From Defluviitaleaceae bacterium (lineage in GTDB: Bacteria > Bacillota > Clostridia > Lachnospirales > WQUN01), in contig WQZS01000014.1 of assembly GCA_009780585.1 (NCBI GenBank), forward strand, positions 227 to 64,226: 64,000 bases of DNA, given 5' to 3'. The notes beneath the pieces are model-generated. The model was not told where the DNA came from and ran no database searches. It was given only the letters and a program-made list of their open reading frames with translations. The position numbers and the translations under genes were made by a program. Shown in pieces: positions 9,702-49,658 of this stretch (positions are counted from its first letter, which is position 1; each line of letters begins with the position of its first letter).

Positions 9702-12700
9702 ACCACGCCTTACTCGCCCCCCTCGCGGAGTCGAAGGAATTTACCCGGGTACGCGCGGCGGTGCGCGGAAGGCAAACGGCGTGGTGTTCGGGCGTGGTAG
9801 GCGCGCAGAAGTGGCATTTGGCGGCGGGGTTGTTGCATGAACCGAACCGTCCGGCGTTGGTGATTGCGCCGTCGGAATTAAAAGCCAAGGAAATCCATCA
9901 GGACTTGTCGTATTTTTTCCCCGATTCCTGTCATTTTTACCCCGGGCGCGACATGATTTTTTACGCCGCCGACGTGAAGAGCGTGGATATTACGCGTCAG
10001 CGGTTGCAAGTGATTGATAAGTTAACGCGGACGGGGGAAGCCTCACCGATTGTCATCCTTTCCGCCGAAGCGCTGCTCGACAGGCTCGTGCCGCCGGAAA
10101 TATTCGCCACGTACAGCCAAGGGTTGAAGGTCGGCGACCGCGTCAAGCCCGAGGATTTGATCCGCAAGCTGGCGTCGATGGGGTATGAGCGCAGCGGCTT
10201 GGCGGAGGGAGCGGGGCAGTTCGCGCTGCGCGGGGGTATATTGGATATTTTCCCCGCGGTGGCGAGTTATGTGCCCCGGGACGGCGAAAAACAAACGCTT
10301 TACTTAAACCCGGCGCAGTCCCTGCGCATTGAATTTTTTGACGATGAAATCGACTCCATCCGCATCGTGGACGCGCTCTCCCAGCGTTCGGTCGAAAAGG
10401 CCGCGTCGTTTTTGGTATACCCCGTGCGGGAATTGGTTTTCGGGCCGAAGCGTCTGCGCCGCGCACGGGAACGGATCAACGCCGCGCGGGATATCCAAAC
10501 CGCCGCGCTTAAATCCAAAGGTAACCACAAGGAAGCGCAAACCCTCGCCGATACCATCGAAGAACAATTGATCCGCTGGTCGGACAGCCACGCTACGGGC
10601 GCGGACGCCTTCTTCCCGTTTTTCTACGAGGAGGAATGTAATTTATTGGATTATTTGCCCTCCGACACGGTGCTGTTCTTCGACGAACCGAACGCGGTTG
10701 CCATCCATATGGAAACCGTGCTGGCGGAATATACCGACAGTATTTCCCACCGTTTGATGGCGGGTCGGCTGCTGCCCGAGCAGGTGCATGTCACGCTCCC
10801 GTGGGCGCAGGTTTTACATAAGACGGCGGGGTTTGCGCGCGTGTTGTTCTCCTCCATGACGGGGACGCTAAGTGAATTTAACCCCGCTCCGCCGGAAATC
10901 CCCTTCCATGTGCGAAGCTCCTCTCCCTTACGGAAAAAACCAAGTGAATTAGCCGATGATCTGCGGGATTTACTTAAAAAATATAAGCGCGTGGTCATCC
11001 TCGCGGGTACGCGACGGCACGGGCAGCAATTGACGGACGCGATACGGGAATTGGACGTCCCCGCATACTTCGCGGGTGCGCTGGAGGGGTCGAAAGGGAT
11101 AGAACGTTCCGAAGGGGCGGCTTCGCTTTCAAGCGACTCGGAACGTTCCATCCCTTCGGGCATCCCCGCGGGCATCGTCACGGTCGCCCGCGGCGCGTTA
11201 TCGGAAGGTTTCGAATACCCGTCGCTTTCCCTCGCCGTAATTACCGACAAGGATTTATTTTCACAGGAAAAAACCCGCCGCCGTACGCGCCGCAAGCTCA
11301 AAAACGCGGAAAAGATCAACCACTTCACCGATTTGCGCATCGGCGACCATATCGTGCACGACAACCACGGCATCGGTGTTTTCCGCGGTATCGAGCAGGT
11401 GGTAAACGAAGGCTTGGCACGGGATTATTTAAAGCTGGAATACGCCGACGGCGGGCATTTGTACGTACAAACCTCGCAAATGGATTTGGTGCATAAATAC
11501 ATCGGCGGCACGCAGGAGGCGCGGCTCAACAAGCTGGGCGGCGCGGATTGGACGAAGGCGAAGGCTCGCGCGCGGCAAGCCGTGGAGATTATGGCGGCGG
11601 ATTTGATCGCGCTGTACGCCAAGCGGCGATCGAGCCAAGGGCATACCTTCGGCCCCGACACCGTGTGGCAAACGGAATTCGAAAGCCAGTTCCCCTATAC
11701 CGAAACCGACGACCAAGCCGCCGCCATCGAGGACGTAAAAGCGGATATGCAATCGCCGAAAGTGATGGACAGGCTCCTGTGCGGCGACGTGGGCTACGGC
11801 AAAACCGAAGTCGCCATCCGCGCCGCGTTTAAAGCCGTACAGGACGGCAAGCAAGTGGCGTACCTCGTACCCACAACGATCCTTGCGCAGCAGCATTACC
11901 AAACTTTCGCGAGCCGCATGAAGGACTACCCCGTTGCGGTCGAGCGGCTCTCCCGCTTCCAAACCCGCGGCGAGCAGCAAGCCACCCTTAAGAATTTGGC
12001 GAAGGGCGCGTCCGACATCGTTATCGGCACACACCGTTTGCTTTCAAAGGATGTACAATTCAAAAACCTCGGCCTAATCATCGTGGACGAGGAGCAACGC
12101 TTCGGCGTGGGCCATAAAGAAAAATTAAAGGAAATGCGCGCTGATGTGGACGTGTTGACGCTGACGGCGACGCCCATCCCGCGTACGCTGCATTTTTCCT
12201 TAACGGGTATCCGCGACATGTCCCTGTTGGACGAACCCCCCGAAGAACGCCAGCCCATCCAAACCTACGTGATGGAATCCAACAACGAATTCGTGCGCGA
12301 CGCGATCAACCGCGAGCTGGCGCGGGGCGGGCAGGTATATTATTTGCACAACCGCGTACGCTCGATCGCCGACGAAGCCATCCGCGTGGCCAACCTCGTA
12401 CCCCAAGCCAAGGTAGCCTTCGCCCACGGCCAAATGAGCGAGCACGAACTGGAAAACATCATGCACGACTTCGTTGCGGGGGACGTGGACGTGCTGGTAT
12501 GTACGACCATCGTGGAAACGGGGCTGGACATCCCCAACGTGAATACGATTATTATACAGAACGCCGATTTCATGGGACTCGCGCAACTTTACCAACTGCG
12601 CGGGCGGGTGGGGCGTTCGAGCCGTTTGGCCTACGCCTACCTCATGTACCGCCGCGATAAAATCCTGCGCGAGGACGCGGAAAAACGCTTGCAAACCATC

Positions 12701-18107: not shown

Positions 18108-18827
18108 ATGCATATCACTATTATCGCAAACGGGACAATTGAAAATTACGCGGCTACGCGCAAAAGAATAATCGGCTCCGATTATTTCATCGCTTGCGAC
18201 GGCGGGCTGCGGCATTTCCCGTTGTTGGGTTTTACGCCCGATTGCATTATCGGTGATTTTGATTCCGCCCCGCCGGAGTTGCTTGCCGATTACCGCACAC
18301 GGGGTGTTCCTGTTGTTTCCTTCCCTTCGGAAAAAGATGAAACGGATTTGGAACTCGCCGTAGCGCACGCGATTGCGCTTAGCCCCGGGGGCGAGGGGTT
18401 CGGCGGTTGCACTCCCTTGAAGGCGAAGTCGGTCGTCGCAACCGCCGAACCCCTCGCCCCCTGCTCGATCGTTATCGTAGGTGCGCTGGGCGGCCGCATT
18501 GACCATGCGCTGGCTAATTTGCATGTGTTGGCGCAATGCGGAAACATCCCCGCCGAAATATGGGATGAATCGACAAGTATTCGGCTAATAAAAAATCATA
18601 TTAAATTATTTAAAAATAATTATAATACTTTATCCCTCATCCCCCTCACTTCCGATGTCACGGGCATCACTACAAAGGGTTTGTATTATCCCTTGCAAAA
18701 CGGAACCCTCCGAGCGGGGGAAACCCGCGGGGTCAGTAATCAATTTACCAACGAAACTGCTGAAATATCCGTTAAAAACGGTTTATTGCTTGCTGTTTTG
18801 TGCAAAACAAATCCACAAGGGTCGTAA
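18108..18827 (+). CDS. thiN: thiamine diphosphokinase, carrying a 25-codon in-frame hairpin insertion
   Basis: Motifs IACDGG, IGDFDS, KDETDLELA and GALGGRIDHALANL. The segment PGGEGFGGCTPLKAKSVVATAEPLAP is encoded by repeat SH-1. Confidence 0.75.
   Translation: MHITIIANGTIENYAATRKRIIGSDYFIACDGGLRHFPLLGFTPDCIIGDFDSAPPELLADYRTRGVPVVSFPSEKDETDLELAVAHAIALSPGGEGFGGCTPLKAKSVVATAEPLAPCSIVIVGALGGRIDHALANLHVLAQCGNIPAEIWDESTSIRLIKNHIKLFKNNYNTLSLIPLTSDVTGITTKGLYYPLQNGTLRAGETRGVSNQFTNETAEISVKNGLLLAVLCKTNPQGS
18387..18461. repeat. short hairpin element SH-1 (24-bp perfect stem + conserved core), in frame inside thiN
   Basis: GGGGGCGAGGGGTTCGGCGGTTGC pairs perfectly with GCAACCGCCGAACCCCTCGCCCCC. The loop core ACTCCCTTGAAGGCGAAGTCGGTCGT is the exact reverse complement of the SH-2 core. 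75 nt long. Confidence 0.9.
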
Positions 18828-18877: not shown

Positions 18878-20314
18878 ATGTTTTCTTCTCATATCTCCCC
18901 TTCCCATATCTCCCCCCAATCCCTCATCGAAGCCTACGGTTCACCCCTATACGTCTACGACGAACGCACCTTCCGTGAAAAATGCCGCGCGATGAAGGCT
19001 TTCTGCCCCTACCCACATTACACGGTCAATTACGCTATCAAAGCCAATTCCAACCTCACCCTGCTTAAAATCGCCCGCGAAGAGGGCCTGCGCACCGACG
19101 TAAGCAGCGTAGGCGAGGCGATAGCCGCGCTCGCCGCGGGCTTCGACCCCAAGGACATCTTTTTCATCGTAAACAACGCCGCCCCGGAAGAACTACGCTT
19201 CGCCATCGAAAAAGGCCTACCCGTAAGCGTAGACTCCCTTTCACAACTGGAAACATACGGACGGCTATACTTGGAAACCAGGGAGGAAGAAGGGTTGCAA
19301 CGACCGACTTCGCCTTCAAGGGAGTGCAACCCTTCTTCCTCCCGGGGCATCAGGGGCATTGGGGGTATTGGAGGCATCGGTGATATTAGCAACATCTGCG
19401 TCCGCTTCAACACAGGCATAGGCGCGGGCCACCACCGTAAAGTAGTAACCGGCGGCGACGACACAAAATTCGGCGTATTACCCGCGGATATCCCAAAGGT
19501 TAAAAAATTATTAATGAAATACAACCTGCGCCTTTCGGGCATTAACCACCATATCGGCTCCCAATACGCGCAGGAACTATACCTCGTCGGCGCAAAGGCA
19601 TTGATCGACATCGCCCGCAATTTCGACGGCTTGGACTTCCTCGACTTCGGCGGCGGCTTTTATATCCCCTACCACAAAATGGACGGAGAAAAGCCCTTCG
19701 ACCTAAAACCCGTAGGCGAAGAACTGGCGCGTATGATGCGTGAATTTTCCATTGAATACGGCAAGCCCCTCACCTGCATGGTCGAACCGGGACGGTACAT
19801 CGCCGCCGAATGTGGGGTACTGCTGGGTACGGTCACGTCCGTTAAACGAATCGGCGCGGCACGCTATGTAGGTTGCGATATCGGGTTTTCTGCGTTCGCG
19901 CGGCCTACGCTGTACGACGCGCACCACGATATCATGGTGTACCCTGCAGCGGCGGGTAAGGAAACGGTTACAACGACCGACATCGCCCTCAAGGGAGTGC
20001 AACCGCTTCCTTCCCCGCCGCGTCATAGCGGTACATCCAACTTGTACCCTAGTAGGGCACAAGTTACCCACCTCGTCGGCAACCAATGCGAAACAGGCGA
20101 TTACGTCGCCAAAAACCGCCCGCTTCCGCCGCTTACCGAAGGTGATATCATCGCCGTGCAGGACGCGGGGGCGTACGGTTATTCCATGGCGTCGCAATAC
20201 AACATGCGGCCGCGCCCTGCGGAGGTTTTGATTTGCGAGGACGGCACGGTTAAATTAATCCGCCGCCGTGACACCCACGAAGGAATGTTGGCGAACATGC
20301 AGGGCTTATGCTAA
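18878..20314 (+). CDS. lysA: diaminopimelate decarboxylase, carrying two in-frame repeat-derived insertions
   Basis: YAIKAN (PLP Lys), DFGGGF, EPGR and CETGD motifs are intact. Start moved to ATG 18878 behind an AAGGAG RBS. The extra segments are encoded by SH-2 plus a 9-nt tandem repeat, and by SH-3 plus palindrome P-2. Confidence 0.88.
   Translation: MFSSHISPSHISPQSLIEAYGSPLYVYDERTFREKCRAMKAFCPYPHYTVNYAIKANSNLTLLKIAREEGLRTDVSSVGEAIAALAAGFDPKDIFFIVNNAAPEELRFAIEKGLPVSVDSLSQLETYGRLYLETREEEGLQRPTSPSRECNPSSSRGIRGIGGIGGIGDISNICVRFNTGIGAGHHRKVVTGGDDTKFGVLPADIPKVKKLLMKYNLRLSGINHHIGSQYAQELYLVGAKALIDIARNFDGLDFLDFGGGFYIPYHKMDGEKPFDLKPVGEELARMMREFSIEYGKPLTCMVEPGRYIAAECGVLLGTVTSVKRIGAARYVGCDIGFSAFARPTLYDAHHDIMVYPAAAGKETVTTTDIALKGVQPLPSPPRHSGTSNLYPSRAQVTHLVGNQCETGDYVAKNRPLPPLTEGDIIAVQDAGAYGYSMASQYNMRPRPAEVLICEDGTVKLIRRRDTHEGMLANMQGLC
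19281..19343. repeat. short hairpin element SH-2 (19-bp perfect stem), in frame inside lysA
   Basis: GGGAGGAAGAAGGGTTGCA and TGCAACCCTTCTTCCTCCC flank the 25-nt loop ACGACCGACTTCGCCTTCAAGGGAG. 63 nt long. Confidence 0.9.
19346..19387 (+). repeat. 9-nt tandem repeat (GGCATYRGG-like, about 4.6 units) inside lysA
   Basis: ggcatcagg ggcattggg ggtattgga ggcatcggt gatatt, translated as GIRGIGGIGGIGDI, immediately 3' of SH-2. Confidence 0.8.
19961..20029. repeat. short hairpin element SH-3 (22-bp stem, 3 mismatches), in frame inside lysA
   Basis: Arms GGCGGGTAAGGAAACGGTTACA and TGCAACCGCTTCCTTCCCCGCC. Loop ACGACCGACATCGCCCTCAAGGGAG has 2 substitutions relative to SH-2. 69 nt long. Confidence 0.85.
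20049..20075. repeat. 27-nt palindrome AACTTGTACCCTA-G-TAGGGCACAAGTT inside lysA (copy P-2)
   Basis: Same sequence family as 746-770, with one arm mismatch; 19 nt downstream of SH-3. Confidence 0.8.
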
Positions 20315-31518: not shown

Positions 31519-32928
31519 ATGTATAGGATCATTGCCCTACTTATCGGCTACGCCTTCGGGTGTTTGCAGAACGGTTACTATTTGTCCAAAAAAACCGCGG
31601 GCATCGACATACGCGACTACGGCTCGGGTGGCGCGGGTATGACCAACGTTACGCGCATACTGGGCACAAAACTCGGCGCGATTGTGCTGGCCGCCGACAT
31701 GGCGAAAGCGGCGGCGGCTTTTCTGCTGGCCTCATGGATATTCAATGGGGCTTTATTTGGTTGGCAGGGGGATTTGCATCCCGGCTTGTACGCGGGCTTG
31801 GGGGTCGTGCTGGGGCATGACTTCCCTTTTTATATGCGCTTCCGCGGCGGGAAGGGCGTAGCCTCCACGCTGGGCCTTATTCTTATGTTGGATTGGCGGA
31901 TTGCGCTGATTGTTTACGCCGTCATCCTCGCCATTGCGTTGATTATCAAGTACATTTCCGTAGCTTCACTCCTTATGTCGCTGCTGATCCCCGCGTTACT
32001 CGCCGTTTTCGGGCACGGTTGGGAAGTTATAACCGTCACTTCCTTCCTGGGCGCGTTGGCGTGGTTTATGCACCGGGGTAATATTTCCCGATTGATTAAA
32101 GGCACGGAGAGTAAGTTTTCCTTTTCCGGCGGTAAGCGTATGCCCGCTTCCAAAACCGTTTTTCCGCCACCCTTAACCCTCGATGACGAACTCCCAACCC
32201 CAAACTCCGGTAAATCATTGGAAATCGAAGCTAACGGGCAAATCTACGCCCGCATCCCCATCCGCACCCACGTCATTACCCAAGACGACGACGCGGCGGA
32301 TGTTTTTATCCCTTACCTCGCACCCCACGTACGCGAAGGCGACATCGTCTTTATTTCCGAACGCGCGGTAGCCTGCACACAATCCCGCGCTATCCCCATG
32401 CGTGACATCAAACCCCGCCGCTTGGCGGTTTTCCTCTCCCGTTATGTACAAAAAACACCCCACGGAATCGGCCTCGGCATCCCCGAAACCATGGAGATGG
32501 CCCTGCGTGAATGTGGGGTTATTTGCATCCTTTTTGCGGCGTTTGTATCCGCTGTCGGCAAGCTGTTCGGCAGCAAGGGCTGGTTCTACCGTGTTGCGGG
32601 GCCCAAAGCGCGGGGTATTGACGGCCCTTGCGATAATACCCTCCCCCCATATAACGAATACGTCGTTCTTGCACCCGACAAACCCGTGCGGGTTACGCAA
32701 ACCATCGCCGAAAGTATTTGCGTACACGTCGCTATCGTGGATGCCAACGATTTGGGCGTAAACCTGTTGGGCGCGTCCGACCCTAAACTGCGCGAATCAT
32801 TTCTTGCGGCGGTATTGCGCGACAACCCTTTGGGACAGTCGTCGGAACAAACGCCGTGCGGGATTATACGGGTGTCGCCGCAGGGTGCGGGGGAAGGTTC
32901 CAACGCCGCGCTTAACGAAATCGGGTGA
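31519..32928 (+). CDS. plsY: fusion protein: glycerol-3-phosphate acyltransferase PlsY + C-terminal F420-0:gamma-glutamyl ligase-like (CofE-fold) domain
   Basis: N-terminal 200 aa carry PlsY motifs (GSGGAGMTNV, GHDFPFYMRFRGGKGVA). The C-terminal 260 aa carry REGDIVFISERAVACTQSRA and VDANDLG, resembling the F420_ligase family. The last ~17 codons and the stop codon lie inside hairpin repeat LH-A. Confidence 0.6.
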   Translation: MYRIIALLIGYAFGCLQNGYYLSKKTAGIDIRDYGSGGAGMTNVTRILGTKLGAIVLAADMAKAAAAFLLASWIFNGALFGWQGDLHPGLYAGLGVVLGHDFPFYMRFRGGKGVASTLGLILMLDWRIALIVYAVILAIALIIKYISVASLLMSLLIPALLAVFGHGWEVITVTSFLGALAWFMHRGNISRLIKGTESKFSFSGGKRMPASKTVFPPPLTLDDELPTPNSGKSLEIEANGQIYARIPIRTHVITQDDDAADVFIPYLAPHVREGDIVFISERAVACTQSRAIPMRDIKPRRLAVFLSRYVQKTPHGIGLGIPETMEMALRECGVICILFAAFVSAVGKLFGSKGWFYRVAGPKARGIDGPCDNTLPPYNEYVVLAPDKPVRVTQTIAESICVHVAIVDANDLGVNLLGASDPKLRESFLAAVLRDNPLGQSSEQTPCGIIRVSPQGAGEGSNAALNEIG

Positions 32929-33058
32929 TGATCGGCTCCGTTCGCGTAGTGCTTGCGTAGGTTGCAAGCACCCTACGCCAAGCACGTAACGCTCGCGTTC
33001 GCCGCTAATCATCCGATTTCGTAGGCGCGGTTTATGGAACTTCCCCCGCACTCTGCGG
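32878..33058 (-). repeat. long hairpin repeat LH-A (181 bp), inverted relative to LH-B/LH-C
   Basis: Terminal arms CCGCAGGGTGCGGGGGAAGGTTCCA and TGGAACTTCCCCCGCACTCTGCGG. Internal blocks CGAAATCGGGTGAT and ATCATCCGATTTCG, CGGCTCCG, and central GGTTGCAAGCACC. Orientation was set by the asymmetric GCGGCGAACG versus CGGAGCCGA blocks. Confidence 0.9.
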
Positions 33059-33144
33059 ACGCGCAACATAAAAATTCAACCAATCCGGAATTGTAAATAT
33101 TTAAGCATTCATGAATGCAAGTATTATTTATTAGAGGAAAAATC

Positions 33145-33771
33145 ATGAAAAAAATCAAACCCTCGAATGAAAATGAGATGGTTTATGAGTTTCTTAAAAT
33201 GGAATTCGATTCCGACCGATTCAAAAAACAAATAGAAACCGTATTGGAAAAAATGTGTATCACTAAGGATATTATTACGAATGGCAATATCATGTGTGAA
33301 AAAGAAAATACCTTAAGAATAAAAATATTAAAACGCTTCAGAGGGTACAAAGACGAAGAACTGTTTGAAAACTTCCCGACAAATGTTGAATGGATATGGA
33401 CTGAATTTGAAAGGGAAGACCTTCCGAAAATCATATATATAGAATACAGCTATTGGAATGAACTTTCCAATTATACGGGTTCGCCCCTCGAAGCGGCTAA
33501 GACGATTTTATCCGGGAAAACCATTTATGATGTACCGAACGACAGCGCGATTGAGGGCGCGAAAAAACTAAGGGAAGGGCATAAATTCCCTCCAATGATA
33601 TTTTTAATGGATGAAAGCGAAAAACGTTATTTAATCCTCGAAGGGCATGGCAGGATGACCGCATACGGGCTTGCATCCGATTTATTTCAAAATGTATCGG
33701 TTCTGCTTGGGTATTGCGATAGTGAAGAATTGGGTAAATGGTACGGTGAAATGCCGAAGCGCCCAAAATAA
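33145..33771 (+). CDS. hypothetical protein (208 aa) with a possible ParB/Srx-like motif near the C-terminus
   Basis: AT-rich ORF with an AGAGGA RBS before ATG 33145. I recognise no family. LILEGHGRMTAYG loosely resembles the ParB/sulfiredoxin (D/E)GxHR..A motif. Confidence 0.55.
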   Translation: MKKIKPSNENEMVYEFLKMEFDSDRFKKQIETVLEKMCITKDIITNGNIMCEKENTLRIKILKRFRGYKDEELFENFPTNVEWIWTEFEREDLPKIIYIEYSYWNELSNYTGSPLEAAKTILSGKTIYDVPNDSAIEGAKKLREGHKFPPMIFLMDESEKRYLILEGHGRMTAYGLASDLFQNVSVLLGYCDSEELGKWYGEMPKRPK

Positions 33772-33782
33772 AGAGGTGGTTT

Positions 33783-34619
33783 ATGGTTACGCAATATCTT
33801 GATGGAATAAAAATAAATTTAAAAAGTCCGTTTAATTTAGATTTTATTAATAATTATGGTCATGTTTTTAAAGTGTTTGACACACAATCTTCGGGAAATT
33901 TATGTTTCGGTGTGGAAAAAGCAGGAAAGCGATATTTTCTTAAATTCGCGGGCGCGGACACATTGGACTATTCCGACACACTCGTTATCGAAGATGCAAT
34001 AACAAGACTTAAATTTACGGTACCAAAATATAAGGATTTATATCACCCGTTGTTGATTAATCAAATAGACGCAGACGAAATCGGCGGTGGGTTCATAACC
34101 GTTTTTGATTGGTTTGATGGGGAAAGCTGCGGTTATCCTCAAAAAGAAGCGTGTAAAAGGTTTATGGCGCTTCCGGACAAAGAAAAACTGCGCGTATATG
34201 ACGGTATACTTGAATTCCATGCTCACGTAGCCGAACGCGGTTATGTGGCGATAGATTTTAACGACCAGGCTACATTATATAATTTTACCAACGGAAATTT
34301 CGCCATTTGTGATATCGATTTTTATGCAAAACAATGTTATATGTGCCACATGGGTGCGGTGTGGGGCGATCCTTCGCTTAAATCGCCCGAAGAAAACAGA
34401 ATCGGCGGCGTAATTGATGAAATAAGTAATGTTTATGCAATGGGAGCTACAGCGTTCGTATTTTTCGCAGAAGACGATAAAAATTCACGTACAAAGTGGT
34501 CTTTAAGTACCTATTCATATGAAGTCGCAAAAAAATCCGTTAGCGAACAGCGAAGTCAAAGACAACAATCAATCCGCAACTATATAAACGAGTGGAATAA
34601 TGCGAAAAGCTGCCGATAA
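33783..34619 (+). CDS. eukaryotic-like protein kinase-fold protein
   Basis: AGAGGTGG RBS. Motif order is YFLKFAG (VAIK-like Lys), HAHVAERGYVAIDFNDQATLYN (catalytic-loop-like), ICDIDF (DFG-like), KSPEE (APE-like) and DEISNVYAMGATAF. Confidence 0.55.
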   Translation: MVTQYLDGIKINLKSPFNLDFINNYGHVFKVFDTQSSGNLCFGVEKAGKRYFLKFAGADTLDYSDTLVIEDAITRLKFTVPKYKDLYHPLLINQIDADEIGGGFITVFDWFDGESCGYPQKEACKRFMALPDKEKLRVYDGILEFHAHVAERGYVAIDFNDQATLYNFTNGNFAICDIDFYAKQCYMCHMGAVWGDPSLKSPEENRIGGVIDEISNVYAMGATAFVFFAEDDKNSRTKWSLSTYSYEVAKKSVSEQRSQRQQSIRNYINEWNNAKSCR

Positions 34620-34645
34620 TAAACATTAATCGCAGGAGGAAAAGA

Positions 34646-35128
34646 ATGAACAGAATTGATATAGTGAGGGAAGCTATTACCGATTTGTTGTTTGAAAGAA
34701 TAAACATAAGGAACAGGTTAATCACGCATACTCATTTAACCGGCGTTGCCTTGCTGTGTGGGTTGATAGCTAAAAAAAGAGGAGCAAACATAGAACTGGC
34801 GGTAATGACAGGATTACTGCATGATTTATACAGCTTTATTACTGAAGGCGTTCAACCCCTTGAAGATAAGATTGCGAAGTCAAATAAAGATGCAGATGTA
34901 GCCCGCGAAATTTTAGACAGGCTCAATATTACAACAACCGATGAAACCGTTATTATTTGCAATGCTGTATGCTATAGAGGCACAGGCGAGTATTCGGAAT
35001 TAGGTCAAATTTTACTTGATGCAAATTTACTCCAACACGCCTATCACAACCCGCTTTTACCAATAAAGTATGGAGAAACAAGGGTTGTTGAACTGCTGGT
35101 TGAATTTGGAATCAGCAACACAGAGTAG
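34646..35128 (+). CDS. HD-domain phosphohydrolase (small, single domain)
   Basis: AGGAGG RBS. THTHLTGVALLCGLIA...LLHDLYSF provides the H...HD metal-binding signature. Confidence 0.6.
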   Translation: MNRIDIVREAITDLLFERINIRNRLITHTHLTGVALLCGLIAKKRGANIELAVMTGLLHDLYSFITEGVQPLEDKIAKSNKDADVAREILDRLNITTTDETVIICNAVCYRGTGEYSELGQILLDANLLQHAYHNPLLPIKYGETRVVELLVEFGISNTE

Positions 35129-35179
35129 GCACTATTTTCGTTACACAATATCACGCTATCCCCTGTCTTGCGGGCAGCA

Positions 35180-35364
35180 GTACGGGGAAGGTTCCATAAG
35201 CCGCGTCTACGAAATCGGGTGATTAGCGGCGAACGGCGGGCTTATGTGCTTGGCGTCGGGTGCTTGCAACCGACGCAAGCACTTGCCCGACGGAGCCGAT
35301 CATCACCCGATTTCGTTCAACGCGGCGTTGGAATCTTCCCCGTACGGGGCTCTTCCCCGTACGG
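35180..35364 (+). repeat. long hairpin repeat LH-B (166-bp hairpin + 19-bp duplicated terminal arm)
   Basis: GTACGGGGAAGGTTCCA and TGGAATCTTCCCCGTAC terminal stem. Blocks CTACGAAATCGGGTGAT and ATCACCCGATTTCGT, GCGGCGAACG and CGGAGCCGA. CTTCCCCGTACGG is repeated at the 3' end. Confidence 0.9.
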
Positions 35365-35428
35365 AGCGTGAACACGGACATTTGAAACGATCATACGGGG
35401 TTTAAATCATGTTTAACAGGAGCATCTT

Positions 35429-37273
35429 ATGTGCGGTTTTTGCGGCTTCACAGGAAACGAATACAACGACGACGATAACACAGTCATCCGAAAAATGGCG
35501 GAGCGCGTATCCCATCGCGGGCCCGACGGCGAAGGGTATTACGTGGACGGGGATATATCCCTGGGCTTCCGCCGCCTCTCCTTTTTTGATTTAAAGCGCG
35601 GCGCACAGCCCATGCGTTCTTCGGACGGCGTATATTCGCTGGTGTTTAACGGTGAAATCTATAACTTCATCGAGCTGCGGGCGGAGCTTGCGGTCAAGGG
35701 CCATGTCTTCGAAACCACAGCCGATACCGAGGTTCTCTTGCACATGTACGAAGAATACGGCGGAGGGATGCTCGACCGCTTGCGCGGAATGTTCGCTTTT
35801 GTCATTTATCATCACGCGTCGGGGGAGCTCTTCGCGGCGCGGGACTTCTTCGGGATCAAGCCCTTTTATTACGGCGTGTTCGGCGGGCAGTTATTGTTCG
35901 CTTCGGAGATAAAATCGTTTTTGGAATACCCCGCCTTCGTGCGCGAGCTCAACCCCCTTGCGCTGGAGGCGTATCTGTCCTTCCAGTATTCCGCGTTGGA
36001 CGAAACGTTCTTCAAAGGCGTTTACAAGCTCCCTCCCGCGCATTTTATGCGGTACAAGGGCGGCGAACTCACGCTCACGCGTTATTGGCAGGCGCGGTTT
36101 AACCCCGTGGAAAGCTACAAGGGCAAACGCGGACTTAACGACATCGTCGAGCAAATCGACGCGGCGGTGAAGGATTCCGTCGGCTACCACCAACGCGCGG
36201 ACGTGGAGCTGGGGACGTTCCTTTCCGGCGGATGGGATTCGAGTTATATCACGGCGGTGTCCAAGGTTGAAAAGTCTTTTTCCGTAGGCTTCGAATACGA
36301 AGGCTTTTCGGAAATCGAAAGCGCGAAATCGTTGGCGAAGGCTAAAGGTATCGAAAATATTTCGAAAAACATCACGACAACCGAATTTTGGGATGCGCTC
36401 CCGGCCATCCAATACCATATGGACGAACCCCTGGCGGACCCCGCGGCTATCGGGCTGTACTTCGTGTGCCGCATGGCCGGCGGCTATGTAAAGGGCGCGC
36501 TGACGGGCGAAGGCGCGGACGAGTTGTTCGGCGGGTACGAGCATTACCACCGTATGTACAACCTCAGCTTCACGAAGGTAATACCCCTTGCGCTGCGCCG
36601 CTTGATCGGCAAGTGGGCGGGTAAAATCCCCTTCGAATTTAAGGGTAAGCGGTTTTTGCAATCGGCGGGCAAACCGCCGGAGGAACGTTATATCGGTAAT
36701 TTCCATACGTTCACCGACGAGGACCGCGCGGAAATCTTGCAACCCGAAATGCTGCACAATCTGCGTACCATTGATATTACGCGTCCCTACTACGACCAAG
36801 CCCGCGAAATGGGCTACGACGATATCACCAAGATGCAATACCTTGACCTGCACCTGTGGATGGTGGGCGATATCTTGTTGAAAGCGGATAAGATGTCCAT
36901 GGCCAATTCTTTTGAAATCCGCGTACCGTTTTTGGACCGCGAGGTGTTTTCCGTTGCCGCGTCCATCCCCACGCGCTACCGCGTCAACCGTAAGGGCGCG
37001 AAATACGCCCTGCGCCAAGCGGCGTTGCGCAACTTCCCCGACGGTAAAGGCAAAATGCGCCGCGGCTTCCCCGTACCCACGCGGTTGTGGCTGCGCGAGG
37101 AAAAATATTACGCGGTCGTACGCGAGGCGTTTGAAAAGGAATTCGTCGGGCGTATCTTCCGAAGGGACAAGCTCTTGCAATTACTAGACAGGCACAAATT
37201 AGGCAAGGCGGACCATTCCCGCATGATTTGGACGATATATATGTTTATTTTGTGGCACGAACGCTTTTTTTAG
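35429..37273 (+). CDS. asnB: asparagine synthase (glutamine-hydrolysing)
   Basis: MCGF N-terminal nucleophile Cys and the SGGWDSS PP-loop. Confidence 0.92.
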   Translation: MCGFCGFTGNEYNDDDNTVIRKMAERVSHRGPDGEGYYVDGDISLGFRRLSFFDLKRGAQPMRSSDGVYSLVFNGEIYNFIELRAELAVKGHVFETTADTEVLLHMYEEYGGGMLDRLRGMFAFVIYHHASGELFAARDFFGIKPFYYGVFGGQLLFASEIKSFLEYPAFVRELNPLALEAYLSFQYSALDETFFKGVYKLPPAHFMRYKGGELTLTRYWQARFNPVESYKGKRGLNDIVEQIDAAVKDSVGYHQRADVELGTFLSGGWDSSYITAVSKVEKSFSVGFEYEGFSEIESAKSLAKAKGIENISKNITTTEFWDALPAIQYHMDEPLADPAAIGLYFVCRMAGGYVKGALTGEGADELFGGYEHYHRMYNLSFTKVIPLALRRLIGKWAGKIPFEFKGKRFLQSAGKPPEERYIGNFHTFTDEDRAEILQPEMLHNLRTIDITRPYYDQAREMGYDDITKMQYLDLHLWMVGDILLKADKMSMANSFEIRVPFLDREVFSVAASIPTRYRVNRKGAKYALRQAALRNFPDGKGKMRRGFPVPTRLWLREEKYYAVVREAFEKEFVGRIFRRDKLLQLLDRHKLGKADHSRMIWTIYMFILWHERFF

Positions 37274-47040: not shown

Positions 47041-47627
47041 CCCCCATCGTGTTAAATAATATCCATAAATCCTACGGCACCCCGCCCAAGCCCGTATTGG
47101 AAAACATATCCCTTACCCTCCACCCCGGTATCACCTGCCTGATGGGCCCGTCGGGCATCGGCAAAACGACCCTTGCTAACATCGCGGCAGGGCTTCTATC
47201 CCCCGACGGCGGCACGGTTACGGGCCGCGAAGGTAAAAAAATCGCTTTCTTGTTTCAGGAAGACCGCTTGCTCGAATGGGAAACCGCGTTGTCCAACGTC
47301 CTTTTCGTCACGCCAAACGCGAAGGAATTTACCGCCCAAGCCCGGACGCTTCTTACACGAGCCGGATTGGCCGATGCCGTAAATCAAAAAACCGCCGAAC
47401 TTTCCGGCGGTATGAAACGCCGCGTCGCTCTTTGCCGTACATTGATCACAGACCGCGATTTCCTCATCCTCGACGAGCCTTTTAAGGGACTGGACGATGA
47501 AACCAAGCCCGCCATCATTGAAATGGTAAAATCCCATATTTCCCTTGAAAACCCCAAGATCATACTTTGTATAACGCATGACCATGCGGAAGCGGAGGCA
47601 CTTAGCGGGCAGTTGATACGAATGTAA
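47037..47627 (+). CDS. ABC transporter ATP-binding protein
   Basis: Walker A GPSGIGKTT, signature LSGGMKRR and Walker B FLILDEP. The ATG overlaps the permease stop. Confidence 0.85.
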   Translation: MTPIVLNNIHKSYGTPPKPVLENISLTLHPGITCLMGPSGIGKTTLANIAAGLLSPDGGTVTGREGKKIAFLFQEDRLLEWETALSNVLFVTPNAKEFTAQARTLLTRAGLADAVNQKTAELSGGMKRRVALCRTLITDRDFLILDEPFKGLDDETKPAIIEMVKSHISLENPKIILCITHDHAEAEALSGQLIRM

Positions 47628-47686
47628 TCCCGGGGGACGACGGTGCGGAGGGATGTGACGTGCGCTTATTGGAATCGGGTGATATG

Positions 47687-48075
47687 CTATTGATTTACAT
47701 ATTTCAAAGTCCATGGGCAAGCTATCATACATTTTAACGCACAACAACATTTTGATACATCAATTAATGATTCTCGTTCACCGCCAATATCCCATGTGTT
47801 TCCATGTATGGCTTTAGCCGGACAATTTTTAACACATTCGTCACAAGTGCCGCATTGAGGGATAATGACAGGATGATTTTCAATTGTAACAGGCATGTTT
47901 GTTAATACAGAACACATACAAAAAGCACAACCATATTCTTTTGTTATGAATAAATTATTTTTGCCAATAAACCCCATTCCGGCAATGCGAGCTATTGATT
48001 TTTGCGGTAGAATACTAACGCCTTGTGTTAAATTCGGGTTAATATATGCAATTGTACCGTTAATAAAGGGTTTGT
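47687..48075 (-). pseudogene. 5'-truncated remnant of a QueG/RdhA-like 4Fe-4S protein
   Basis: Track ORF 47687..47977 begins in mid-family (GMGFIGKNNLFITKEYG) and carries CGTCDECVKNCP. The frame stays open upstream (..NPNLTQGVSILPQKSIARIAG) with no usable start codon and runs into brnA. A full-length paralog architecture is seen at 20364..21284. Confidence 0.5.
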
Positions 48076-48093
48076 GAAAACAAGTCCTTAAAA

Positions 48094-48330
48094 TTATGTC
48101 GGTATGGATTCCCTCTCCTTTTGGAGCGTTCTAAGGAACTCGGTAACGAAAGCGCGTTCATCGGGAGGGAGAGCCGCCAACTTGGCTTCCTTATTTGGAA
48201 TATCCAAAGGACTCATCAATACAACTTCGCCCCGTGATACCTTTTCACGAAGCGGGTGTCCTTTGCGTTTCATAGTGCTTAGGTCATATTCAGCTTTCAC
48301 AAAATCACCTCTTCCAAAGTTTATGCTCAA
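48094..48330 (-). CDS. brnA: BrnA-type antitoxin
   Basis: 78 aa located downstream of, and overlapping, brnT. Contains the AEYDLSTMKRKG motif typical of DUF497-partner antitoxins. Confidence 0.6.
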   Translation of the reverse strand: MSINFGRGDFVKAEYDLSTMKRKGHPLREKVSRGEVVLMSPLDIPNKEAKLAALPPDERAFVTEFLRTLQKERESIPT

Positions 48331-48631
48331 TCTGCGTAGCTTTTCTGGCAGAAATTATGCGTATAACCATATCATCTTCGCGCCAGCAATGAACAACCGT
48401 AAGAATACGCGATTCTTTGCTTAACCCTATTACAATAAGCCTTTCTTCATCATCGGAGTGGCTGTCATCTTCAAACTCTTCAGCACCGCCAATGATAAAA
48501 ACAGAGGCAGCCTCTTCAAATGATATGCCATGCTTCGTTTTATTGCTCTCGGCTTTAATTTTATCCCAAACAAAAAGCTGACCGTCAAGTTCGTATGCAA
48601 CATCACGTTCGGAGGTTTCCATAAAAATCAC
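48305..48631 (-). CDS. brnT: BrnT-family (DUF497) toxin
   Basis: FVWDKIKAESNKTKHGISFEEAASVF...HSDDEERLIVIG...IRIISARKAT matches the BrnT pattern. Confidence 0.75.
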   Translation of the reverse strand: MIFMETSERDVAYELDGQLFVWDKIKAESNKTKHGISFEEAASVFIIGGAEEFEDDSHSDDEERLIVIGLSKESRILTVVHCWREDDMVIRIISARKATQIEHKLWKR

Positions 48632-48767
48632 TTCCTCATAGTATTCAAGGGGCGCACTTATACACTCGCAGAGCCGGTGCAGTGCGGCTTGCGGGGGCTT
48701 CCCTGCCTATCGGCAGGGGAATGAAGGCGAAGTTATACAAGCTACAAGCGTTAGCTAAAGAAAACGC

Positions 48768-49145
48768 TTATTTTTTGTATGCAACCGCATCAATCTGAAC
48801 TTGCAAACCACCTTCGCCACCATTGTGAGCAAAATCGGTAGATAAGGTTTTACGTGCAGGGTAAACGCCCTTGAATCGCTCCTTAAACACCTTTTCCATT
48901 GTTGGAATGTTCCAAGGGTCTTTCATCAACACGTCAACCTTAACAACTGATTCAAGGGTTAAGCCGACTTTGGACAATCTTTGCTCCATATCATCAAGCG
49001 CACCATTGACCTGTGCTTCAACAGATTGCCCCACATTCCCGACGCAAAAAGACAAGAATAAAAAGTCACCTGCCTCGACAATCTCCGAATAAGCATTTCT
49101 TTCAGCAGTGTCGTTATCAATACTATATCTTCTAATTTCGCTCAT
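48768..49145 (-). CDS. RidA/YjgF-family protein
   Basis: 125 aa, chorismate-mutase-like YjgF fold pattern (FLFLSFCVGN...VKVDVLMKD...PARKTLS). Confidence 0.65.
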   Translation of the reverse strand: MSEIRRYSIDNDTAERNAYSEIVEAGDFLFLSFCVGNVGQSVEAQVNGALDDMEQRLSKVGLTLESVVKVDVLMKDPWNIPTMEKVFKERFKGVYPARKTLSTDFAHNGGEGGLQVQIDAVAYKK

Positions 49146-49486
49146 ATAAATCTTCCCTTTCTGCGCATTGTTCAGTTATTTTTGCTATTGTGATTATAGC
49201 ACGTGCGTAATCATTCTCAAAATAATATCTTTCTCAAGATACTTGACAACCCTCCAACCACTCCAATTACATAAAATTATTGTTTTTTTGTAATTCTTTT
49301 AAGCGATTTATATGGGAATTTTAAACCGCCATCTTATTCTTGTGGACATACAATACAAGACGGACAACATTTTTGCCCTAACTACGGAACGGCAAACCCA
49401 TCATAAAATATATTAAACGATAAAAAATAAAAAAGACCTTATTCTTTTATGTAACTTTTTTTTACATCCATTACGTCGTACGGTAA

Positions 49487-49658
49487 CGTGAACGGGGGAA
49501 GGAACCCATGCCGCGCCTACGAAATCGGGTGTCGGGCGGCGAACGCGAGGGTTATGTTACGCCGTCGGGCATTTATGACCGACGGCGTAACTTCCCGAGC
49601 GGAGCCGACCGGCGCCCGATTTCGATGAGCGCGGCGGGGGTTCCTTCCCCCGTTCACG
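49487..49658 (+). repeat. long hairpin repeat LH-C (172 bp)
   Basis: 21-bp perfect terminal stem CGTGAACGGGGGAAGGAACCC and GGGTTCCTTCCCCCGTTCACG. Blocks CTACGAAATCGGGTG and CGCCCGATTTCG, GCGGCGAACG and CGGAGCCGA. Unique 13-bp central stem GTTACGCCGTCGG and CCGACGGCGTAAC. Confidence 0.9.

Follow-up and report, generated by a model that had tools for sequence, protein, structure and literature searches.

Long polar DNA hairpins at the borders of AT-rich accessory cassettes in a Defluviitaleaceae bacterium

Introduction

A 64,000-nucleotide stretch of the draft genome of a Defluviitaleaceae bacterium (C14:227-64226, contig WQZS01000014.1; hereafter the window) holds three long imperfect hairpins, two of which enclose a small AT-rich cassette of three genes between plsY and asnB. 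The closest described systems are mobile insertion cassettes (MICs), such as MIC231 of Bacillus cereus, composites flanked by MITEs (miniature inverted-repeat transposable elements), such as integron mobilisation units and TIME composites, and the foldback elements of eukaryotes. The hairpins share with MICs and MITE composites the inverted terminal modules around passenger genes, the lack of a transposase inside, the non-autonomous build and the occurrence of "empty" MITE-like versions beside cargo-bearing ones. Unlike in those composites, each end is a near-perfect palindrome of 165-215 bp with asymmetric loops and a fixed polarity, the two ends often belong to different sub-families, and neither a cognate insertion sequence (IS) with the same ends nor a clean target-site duplication was found.

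Three further groups of palindromic elements invite comparison. First, repetitive extragenic palindromic (REP) sequences and REPINs (~70-110 bp) are mobilised by RAYT proteins, which are Y1 HUH transposases, and are thought to be recognised as folded single-stranded DNA. Like these and the ends of IS200/IS605 elements, our hairpins are long, extragenic and present in high copy, with structure rather than sequence conserved; unlike REPINs, they are 165-215 bp long, are linked in a polar manner to AT-rich cargo and occur in a genus without Y1_Tnp or TnpB matches. Second, the attC sites of integrons (57-141 bp) stand in direct orientation in arrays, and pdif sites are the 28-bp Xer sites of Acinetobacter plasmid modules. 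Like attC, the hairpins border small, diverse cassettes and are palindromes of imperfect build, in which some unpaired bases are conserved and the stems vary but stay complementary; they differ in that no integron integrase was found, in their greater length and in their inverted, dispersed rather than direct, arrayed arrangement. As with pdif, inverted sites bound modules, though the sites here are hairpins of 170 bp. Third, ERIC, YPAL and Correia (NEMIS) are dispersed palindromic repeats of 100-170 bp in Proteobacteria, comparable in length and in their ability to fold as long hairpins; they belong to another phylum, the hairpins have no similarity to plasmid or phage collections, and we know of no description of ERIC, YPAL or Correia as polar borders of AT-rich cassettes.

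Results

A family of long hairpins with a constrained fold

The genome that holds the window (G000) is a draft of 3.12 Mb in 53 contigs with 51.7% GC, and G001-G004 are the other genomes of its genus. The three window copies, defined by sequence, fold and covariance model (for LH-A also by the list of open reading frames, ORFs), are:

32878-33058, minus strand: LH-A, hairpin repeat at the left end of the cassette
35180-35364, plus strand: LH-B, hairpin repeat at the right end of the cassette (palindrome proper 35180-35349)
49487-49658, plus strand: LH-C, solo hairpin repeat at the right border of an AT-rich islet

Trained on 27 diverse copies, a covariance model places them at 32882-33051 (minus), 35180-35349 (plus) and 49491-49658 (plus), with 166.7, 180.2 and 153.9 bits, respectively. 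The window copies score 154-180 bits in one sense versus 57-70 bits in the opposite sense (for LH-A, 57 bits on the plus strand), and thus each has a clear polarity. Weak matches of 21-22 bits at 11095-11159, 18386-18466 and 19282-19346 fall on short intragenic hairpins; they are generic hairpin matches outside the family.

Each copy folds into one long imperfect hairpin, at -117 kcal/mol for LH-A (z = -9.65), -126.7 kcal/mol for LH-B (z = -10.6) and -147 kcal/mol for LH-C (z = -13.35), measured against 200 dinucleotide shuffles per copy; the shuffled controls lie at -73 to -85 kcal/mol, and 0 of 200 reach native stability. LH-B carries in addition a 17-bp tandem duplication (TCTTCCCCGTACGG(G/A)GC twice) at 35334-35367. 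A three-way alignment contains the conserved blocks CTACGAAATCGG(G/A)TG, C(A/G)CCCGATTTCG, GCGGCGAACG and CGGAGCCGA, together with central and terminal stems that are specific to each copy and complementary within it. The positions, the single long hairpins, the blocks and the copy-specific stems had all been proposed in a sequence-only reading of this DNA and are borne out here, with the addition that three is the count for the window and not for the genome.

Across the family, copies are 165-215 bp long and consist of four helices. The co-varying stems claimed earlier are real: in a 27-sequence alignment, 94% of the cells are standard pairs and 44 of the 50 stem pairs have double compensatory changes. 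There are 263 double-change cells, compared with 71 +/- 7 in shuffles, and the covariation score is 0.561, compared with 0.06-0.10 when partners are slid by 1-3 columns. One-sided changes of the G-U type occupy only ~37 cells, ~7 times fewer than double changes, and G-U pairs are equally rare in both senses (90 vs 90). In a DNA palindrome, a G-T pair on one strand equals an A-C pair on the other; this scarcity of G-U is the signature of a DNA palindrome or of templated correction from arm to arm, and not of a typical RNA.

The stems are interrupted by an invariant asymmetric loop, in which 5'-CGGCGAA(C/G)G in the 5' arm stands opposite C(G/C)GAGCCG in the 3' arm, with GAA and GA unpaired and an adjacent C-G pair that swaps to G-C. 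A second asymmetric loop (ATAAGC / GCGTTGG) is kept in most copies. Since palindromes tend toward perfection, the invariant asymmetry implies selection, and it gives every copy a clear polarity. Otherwise the copies are mosaic, with central tips (GCTTG, ATTTA, TGCTTCCCA and others) and stem modules shuffled among them. By eye only, GTTGGAA in the 3' arm of most copies matches 6 of 7 positions of the attC core site (RYYYAAC / GTTRRRY), and its 5' partner is interrupted (TTCCATAAGC). As a separate observation, several members of the "GATTGGCGGAATCGGG" sub-family have a short motif in common, ACATGTAACCTCCCCGCGGGG(T/A), immediately outside the hairpin (G000 C4:55300-55340, C2:165450-165530 and C4:152380-152420).

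Iterated nhmmer searches put the copy number in G000 at ~79, which amounts to 11.96 kb or 0.38% of the genome. As in MITEs, the terminal repeats are inverted, the whole element being palindromic, and no ORF belongs to the element itself. Of the 106 contig ends, 20 have a copy within 300 bp, and therefore the repeat breaks the assembly. We ran the 27-copy model, a check suggested by the sequence-only reading, on 40 genomes of the same GTDB family and scored up to 70 candidates per genome. With E-values that are rough, every one of the five genomes of the genus has the repeat (at least 68, 50, 67, 17 and 1 copies), as do 3 of the 35 others, which represent two other genera (14, 3 and 2 copies).

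Database searches agree with the earlier statement that no named RNA family is recognisable. At gathering thresholds, Rfam returns two tRNAs in the window and leaves the hairpins unmatched; at E <= 10, a scan of 32700-35500 gives only chance-level matches elsewhere in that interval. The plasmid and phage collections hold no match to the repeat, and literature searches found no description of such a hairpin family. A loose pattern (GGCGAACG-N45-75-ACGGAGCCG) run across genome contigs yields only chance matches in GC-rich genomes; a tighter pattern run across metagenome contigs is found in four JGI samples only (Ga0123352, Ga0123353, Ga0131853 and Ga0136643), and that scan found no autonomous element. 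Neisseria-type repeats were rejected, as the genome has no DNA uptake sequence. We conclude firmly that the hairpins are genuine and form a family of long palindromic DNA repeats that had not been annotated before and whose fold is under constraint.

Polarity and inward-facing pairs

When copies are oriented by the asymmetric loop and their flanks compared in 800-bp windows, the 5' side in G000 has 43.0% GC versus 52.3% on the 3' side, the latter being equal to the genome mean, and AT content is higher on the 5' side in 48 of 57 copies (Wilcoxon p = 1e-7). The sister species G002 gives the same picture, with 41.1% GC on the inner versus 52.6% on the outer side and 15 of 16 copies in agreement. 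Flank GC differs by more than 0.10 at 63% of the copies versus 9% of random positions, a tabulation that the sequence-only reading had also suggested. That reading had placed a boundary between GC-rich and AT-rich DNA at every copy, which is correct for all three window copies and holds statistically genome-wide; the converse fails, as AT-rich blocks of the window at ~17-19 kb, 23-25 kb, 55-57 kb and 60-62 kb have no copy. A fixed polarity, inward-facing pairing and conserved cassette arms were not part of it.

Among the 20 pairs of copies in G000 that lie closer than 6 kb, 13 are (-,+), with their 5' sides face to face (orientation split 13:4:3); LH-A and LH-B are one such pair. Ten of the 13 have 0.5-3 kb between the hairpins, in the manner of MICs, and the other three enclose only 64-86 bp and are the "empty" (-,+) pairs of this genome. 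In the eight inward-facing pairs with gaps of ~0.9 kb or more, the DNA inside has 36-44% GC versus mostly 50-58% outside. Such pairs recur in G002 and G004; most often, those of G004 are (-,+) double hairpins whose members are separated by 135-270 bp and enclose no cargo. Polarity is assigned from the central asymmetry, which could flip by recombination within the palindrome, and the flanks in G004 suggest that such a flip has occurred between species. The hairpins are thus firmly characterised as polar border elements of AT-rich accessory cassettes, frequently in inward-facing pairs.

The double hairpins of G004 (L180-L189) were also seen to form units of ~500-750 bp; several copies are flanked, beyond the hairpins, by inverted AT-rich termini of the type TTAATTTAATTYRC. 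These outer termini hint that there is a larger composite element, with a target that is AT-rich (TTAA-like).

Cargo and conserved cassette arms

The cargo features of the window, identified by composition, ORFs and Pfam, are:

33059-35179, plus strand: AT-rich cargo (37-40% GC) with three ORFs on the same strand
33115-33771, plus strand: cargo ORF1, no Pfam family
33783-34619, plus strand: cargo ORF2, no Pfam family
34646-35128, plus strand: cargo ORF3, HD-domain protein (Pfam)
47493-49486, no strand assigned: AT-rich islet (~41% GC) on the 5' (inner) side of LH-C, from composition and the islet delimitation C14:47719-49719

In the covariance-model scan of the window, the far end of the LH-C islet has no partner hairpin. 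Throughout G000, AT-rich islets adjoining hairpins total ~110 kb. Their cargo is diverse and of the kinds usual for accessory DNA. It includes, by eye from the translations, a RelB/YafQ-like toxin-antitoxin pair and GNAT, deaminase-like and histidine-phosphatase-like proteins. It also includes an ANT(6) streptomycin adenylyltransferase; APH, metallo-beta-lactamase-fold, NUDIX and methyltransferase proteins; and DUF4143 ATPase, SLFN/AlbA_2, YhcG PD-(D/E)XK nuclease, MerR/Cass2, TetR and HD-domain proteins. Many cargo ORFs have no Pfam family. No transposase or recombinase was found among the 40 largest ORFs of the AT-rich islets.

Resistance-type genes were noticed in three hairpin-bounded islets of G000 (C11:64984-67286, C42:6372-9073 and C32:392-1351), which hold ANT(6) (E = 1e-80), an APH-family kinase, a metallo-beta-lactamase-fold protein, GNAT and a MerR regulator with a Cass2 "integron-associated effector-binding" domain.

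One sub-type of cassette recurs, with a sub-family-1 hairpin and a leader of ~90 bp at one end and a sub-family-2 hairpin at the other. Within the leader are a small covarying palindrome and a promoter-like block (TTGAYYYTGATACAACGAAATGYTAKGAT), which is found at 220-231 bp on the inner side of four hairpins, reading inward; the sub-family-2 arm contains a terminator-like hairpin. Different cargo genes stand between the same conserved arms, and the loci C5:144717-146283 and C10:2-1138 have the entire inner segment in opposite orientations. The ~90-bp leader includes a member of a further family of small REP-like palindromes (AACTTCTGNCC...GGNCAGAAGTT), whose stems covary and which has ~116 pattern matches genome-wide, often in tandem directly inside long hairpins (for example C2:246892-246985 and C13:61299-61392).

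Insertion between plsY and asnB

At the cassette of LH-A and LH-B, comparison with relatives identifies the arrangement without an insert. In G001 and G004, the plsY-fusion gene and asnB are adjacent, and asnB starts 10-20 bp past the plsY stop codon. In G000, the whole unit of LH-A, three genes and LH-B lies between them and the last codons of plsY are replaced: the plsY-fusion ORF (31519-32928) ends inside LH-A, the first ~50 bp of which encode its last 17 codons and the stop (repeat-encoded residues ...SPQGAGEGSNAALNEIG). In G002, the same site has half of LH-A and the first cargo gene only; LH-B is missing, and just its 5' outer-stem arm, CAGTACGGG, is kept. These sequence comparisons show a whole-unit insertion at plsY|asnB. 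One further feature belongs to this locus:

35365-35428, plus strand: spacer from LH-B to the asnB start codon, with a new asnB ribosome-binding site AGGAG, from comparison with relatives

The gene asnB is translationally coupled to plsY in the relatives, and in G000 it has a new ribosome-binding site and a possible promoter from the inserted DNA (35365-35431).

Loss footprints and rearrangements between sister species

Between G000 and G002 there are five single-hairpin differences. LH-B, LH-C, C9:76636 and C1:311166 are present only in G000, and a full hairpin at G002 C13:369-531 corresponds to a remnant at G000 C4:36780. A single outer-stem arm survives in each of the five "empty" alleles; it abuts a G-run in four of them and, at C1:311166, a CCGCC-type repeat. 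The LH-C site in G002, for example, has GTGAACGGGG (the 5' outer-stem arm) and a G-run without a hairpin, and GTGAACGGGG is the only sequence conserved there beside otherwise unrelated cargo. G-runs flank three of the single hairpins in comparison with G002, and no exact direct repeat is definable. Because an outer-stem arm is retained at every "empty" allele, we read the footprints, on sequence grounds, as probable deletions by slippage between G-runs at the hairpin base and not as virgin targets. The possibility that outer stems are copied from the target at insertion was set aside, as the arm is retained beside differing cargo in G002 and deletion is more economical. A search for paralogous empty sites within G000 found none.

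Three orthologous hairpin-bounded slots (L015, L024 and L027) hold different cargo in G000 and G002. Two other loci of G002 (L017 and L026) join flanks that in G000 lie 81 kb apart or on different contigs (C4:15796, C4:97305, C19:9282 and C24:33982); the hairpins thus coincide with rearrangement break-points.

Discussion

We propose, with moderate confidence, that the hairpins are DNA-level terminal modules of non-autonomous, cassette-carrying foldback or MIC-like elements that are recognised as structure and eroded by deletion. A complete unit would consist of an inner segment between a (-) hairpin and a (+) hairpin, the 5' sides of both of which point inward. What lies inside ranges from a spacer of 64-270 bp, giving a MITE- or foldback-like unit that is the usual form in one sister species, up to 7 kb of AT-rich, horizontally acquired accessory genes, which in one sub-family are framed by conserved arms with the promoter-like block and the terminator-like hairpin. 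An enzyme encoded elsewhere may recognise the folded hairpin, as a cruciform or single-stranded, by its invariant asymmetric loops and then move or exchange the unit. The Watson-Crick stems may be maintained by selection on the fold, by template-switch correction between the arms, or by both. At the same time, inverted hairpins may mediate inversion of the inner segment as well as larger rearrangements, and frequent hairpin loss by slippage between G-runs at the stem base would leave solo copies and short footprints.

Several results weigh against this proposal. All presence/absence cases except plsY|asnB can be read as deletion, and therefore the mobility of the unit rests on plsY|asnB and on the copy-number differences. 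For more than half of the copies, no partner could be detected; paired partners are 75% identical, compared with 65% for random pairs (p = 0.03), and one pair is only 49% identical, which means that pairs are not fresh copies of one end. No clean target-site duplication is definable, either from the outer flanks of pairs or from empty-site comparisons. The genome is a draft metagenome-assembled genome (MAG), its ORFs were called mechanically, and the copies are phylogenetically related, so that the p-values are optimistic.

Nor did the searches turn up a transposase or recombinase with matching ends, or any of the enzymes by which such hairpins are known to be moved. Y1_Tnp (PF01797; RAYT/IS200) has 0 matches in G000-G004, in a search whose control was positive in 6 of 14 reference genomes. 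The IS110 DEDD transposase (PF01548) has 0 matches in the five genomes of the genus; it occurs in 17 of the 40 family genomes, and its presence does not track the repeat. TnpB (PF07282), looked for as the mark of IS200/IS605/IS607 or PATE elements, likewise has 0 matches in the genus, though it is present elsewhere in the family. Against the integron integrase model TIGR02249, the tyrosine recombinases of G000, a genome 95% complete in which absence is not absolute, reach at best 62.7 bits versus a cut-off of 265; five were scored, and a partial duplicate and the C48 paralogue were not scored separately. An IS630-like IS was rejected as the cognate element, as its termini (TATAATMACATAAAT) are unrelated to the hairpins, in a search that was not exhaustive.

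There are seven tyrosine-recombinase matches in G000, with one Xer-like protein, four phage-type integrases (one a partial duplicate) and one small invertase-like protein among them. The Xer-like recombinase does not track the repeat, since it is conserved throughout the genus (five genomes), also where there is only one hairpin. A phage-type integrase gene ends 311 bp inside one C41 hairpin, on its AT-rich side; as a mobiliser it was rejected, being a single case that is not conserved in G002. C41:1-1050 and C48:1-741 are 92%-identical copies of the 3' part of this type of integrase at contig starts, and a 74%-identical full copy lies at C41:6958-7524. The short hairpin-flanked contigs C47, C49, C50 and C52 were considered as IS candidates and rejected because they carry ordinary core genes. 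Apart from the hairpins, the IS630-family IS forms ~16 contig ends of G000 (transposase C-terminus ...LNPIEKFWAWLK, N-terminus MAYDAKFRGRVLKYIDKGHTVQEA), and a second IS with ends TGTACTGCACCAG...ACGGACGGGGAAAGAA, whose termini are likewise unrelated to the hairpins, accounts for other contig ends. The IS-occupied ends are on C1, C5, C7, C16, C24, C28, C36, C39, C40 and C52, and on C2, C10, C14 (right end), C23, C36 and C44.

Because the tests for the defining enzymes failed, the hairpins fall outside integrons, REPIN-RAYT, IS110 and IS200/IS605. What they resemble is MICs and foldback elements, and in part attC or REPINs. A more far-reaching idea, which we regard as improbable and put forward only tentatively, is that Clostridia possess a structure-specific system for cassette mobility that has yet to be described, with these polar hairpins of ~170 bp, set in inverted pairs, as its recognition sites; its enzyme would be none of IntI, Y1/RAYT, IS110 and TnpB. 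If that were true, the system would account for ~110 kb (3.5%) of accessory DNA in G000 and would be functionally analogous to integrons and pdif modules.

Three other explanations have to be considered. The first is that a hairpin, or an empty (-,+) pair, is itself a structure-specific site beside the 5' side of which a site-specific recombinase inserts, excises or swaps AT-rich cassettes, in resemblance to integron attC, the folded CTX-phage attP and pdif modules, while standing outside those families. It is consistent with the empty pairs of 64-270 bp, with the different cargo held by the same conserved hairpins in G000 and G002 (L015, L024 and L027), and with the conserved arms that frame different cargo. 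The unpaired bases of the asymmetric loops, which are conserved, are reminiscent of the extrahelical bases that select the strand in attC, and the cargo spectrum resembles that of integron cassettes, including the Cass2-type domain. However, no integron integrase was found, and the sites that flank a cassette are inverted, so that simple site-specific recombination would invert the cassette and not release it. In addition, the plsY|asnB site in outgroups has no pre-existing hairpin, and no fixed insertion point within the spacer is demonstrable. We therefore consider this explanation unlikely.

The second is that the single hairpin is the mobile unit, MITE- or REPIN-like; its link to islets would then be secondary, through shared permissive intergenic sites or a target preference for islet borders, and pairs would be independent insertions. 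Solo copies are many, pair partners are often of different sub-families, and ERIC, YPAL and Correia, among others, are well-known palindromic families of MITE-like type. LH-B, LH-C, C9:76636 and C1:311166 are, moreover, individually present in G000 and absent from otherwise collinear DNA in G002; these "empty" sites all retain an outer-stem arm, however, and look like deletions. Random co-accumulation of single hairpins does not predict the strict polarity (48/57 and 15/16), nor does this explanation predict the 13:4:3 excess of inward-facing pairs or the recurrent pairing of sub-family 1 with sub-family 2 and their distinct conserved arms. Considering also that neither a clean target-site duplication nor a cognate IS was found, it is doubtful that single hairpins are the unit of mobility.

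The third is a structured RNA, one of the three readings first offered for these repeats together with a MITE/REP-like palindrome and a recombination hotspot; the evidence favours the two DNA-level readings. Strong covariation in a palindromic repeat is not proof of RNA, and the massive covariation seen here should be taken as a caution in this respect. In favour of RNA, the (-,+) geometry puts the (+) sense in any transcript that leaves an islet through either hairpin, and the (+) sense folds more stably than the (-) sense by 6.5 kcal/mol on average (42 of 55 copies). The nearest genes, in contrast, point toward or away from the hairpin without bias (28/23 on the inner and 40/28 on the outer side), which argues against a role as a cis-acting RNA, and the test for an intrinsic terminator finds no T-run directly after the stem, with T-rich stretches ~30 nt further out in some copies. 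The promoter-like block beside the hairpin reads away from it in several cassettes, and ~80 copies with copy-specific stems in 0.4% of the genome are atypical for an RNA gene. It is thus highly improbable that, where a transcript leaves an islet, the hairpin is a terminator, insulator, stabiliser or processing site for its 3' end, or that it is a free small RNA of ~170 nt, given the lack of an Rfam match, the G-U balance and the rarity of one-sided changes, and the behaviour of a multi-copy, assembly-breaking, deletion-prone repeat. High-copy dispersal, assembly breaks, strictly Watson-Crick stems, a polarity tied to AT-rich cargo and not to gene direction, and presence/absence with footprints together favour DNA.

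For the genomes themselves, about one in five assembly breaks of this MAG is explained by the repeat, which also marks where rearrangement break-points lie between sister species. If our reading of the hairpins as terminal modules of cassette-carrying elements is true, a sizeable part of the accessory genome of these uncultured Clostridia would consist of small cassettes, marked off by a structured DNA signal, with resistance-like, toxin-antitoxin, nuclease and regulator genes, and the covariance model together with the polarity rule provides a handle for finding such cassettes in metagenomes. To our knowledge, integrons are reported as rare or absent in this phylum; the hairpin family makes the movement of gene cassettes in it a testable question.

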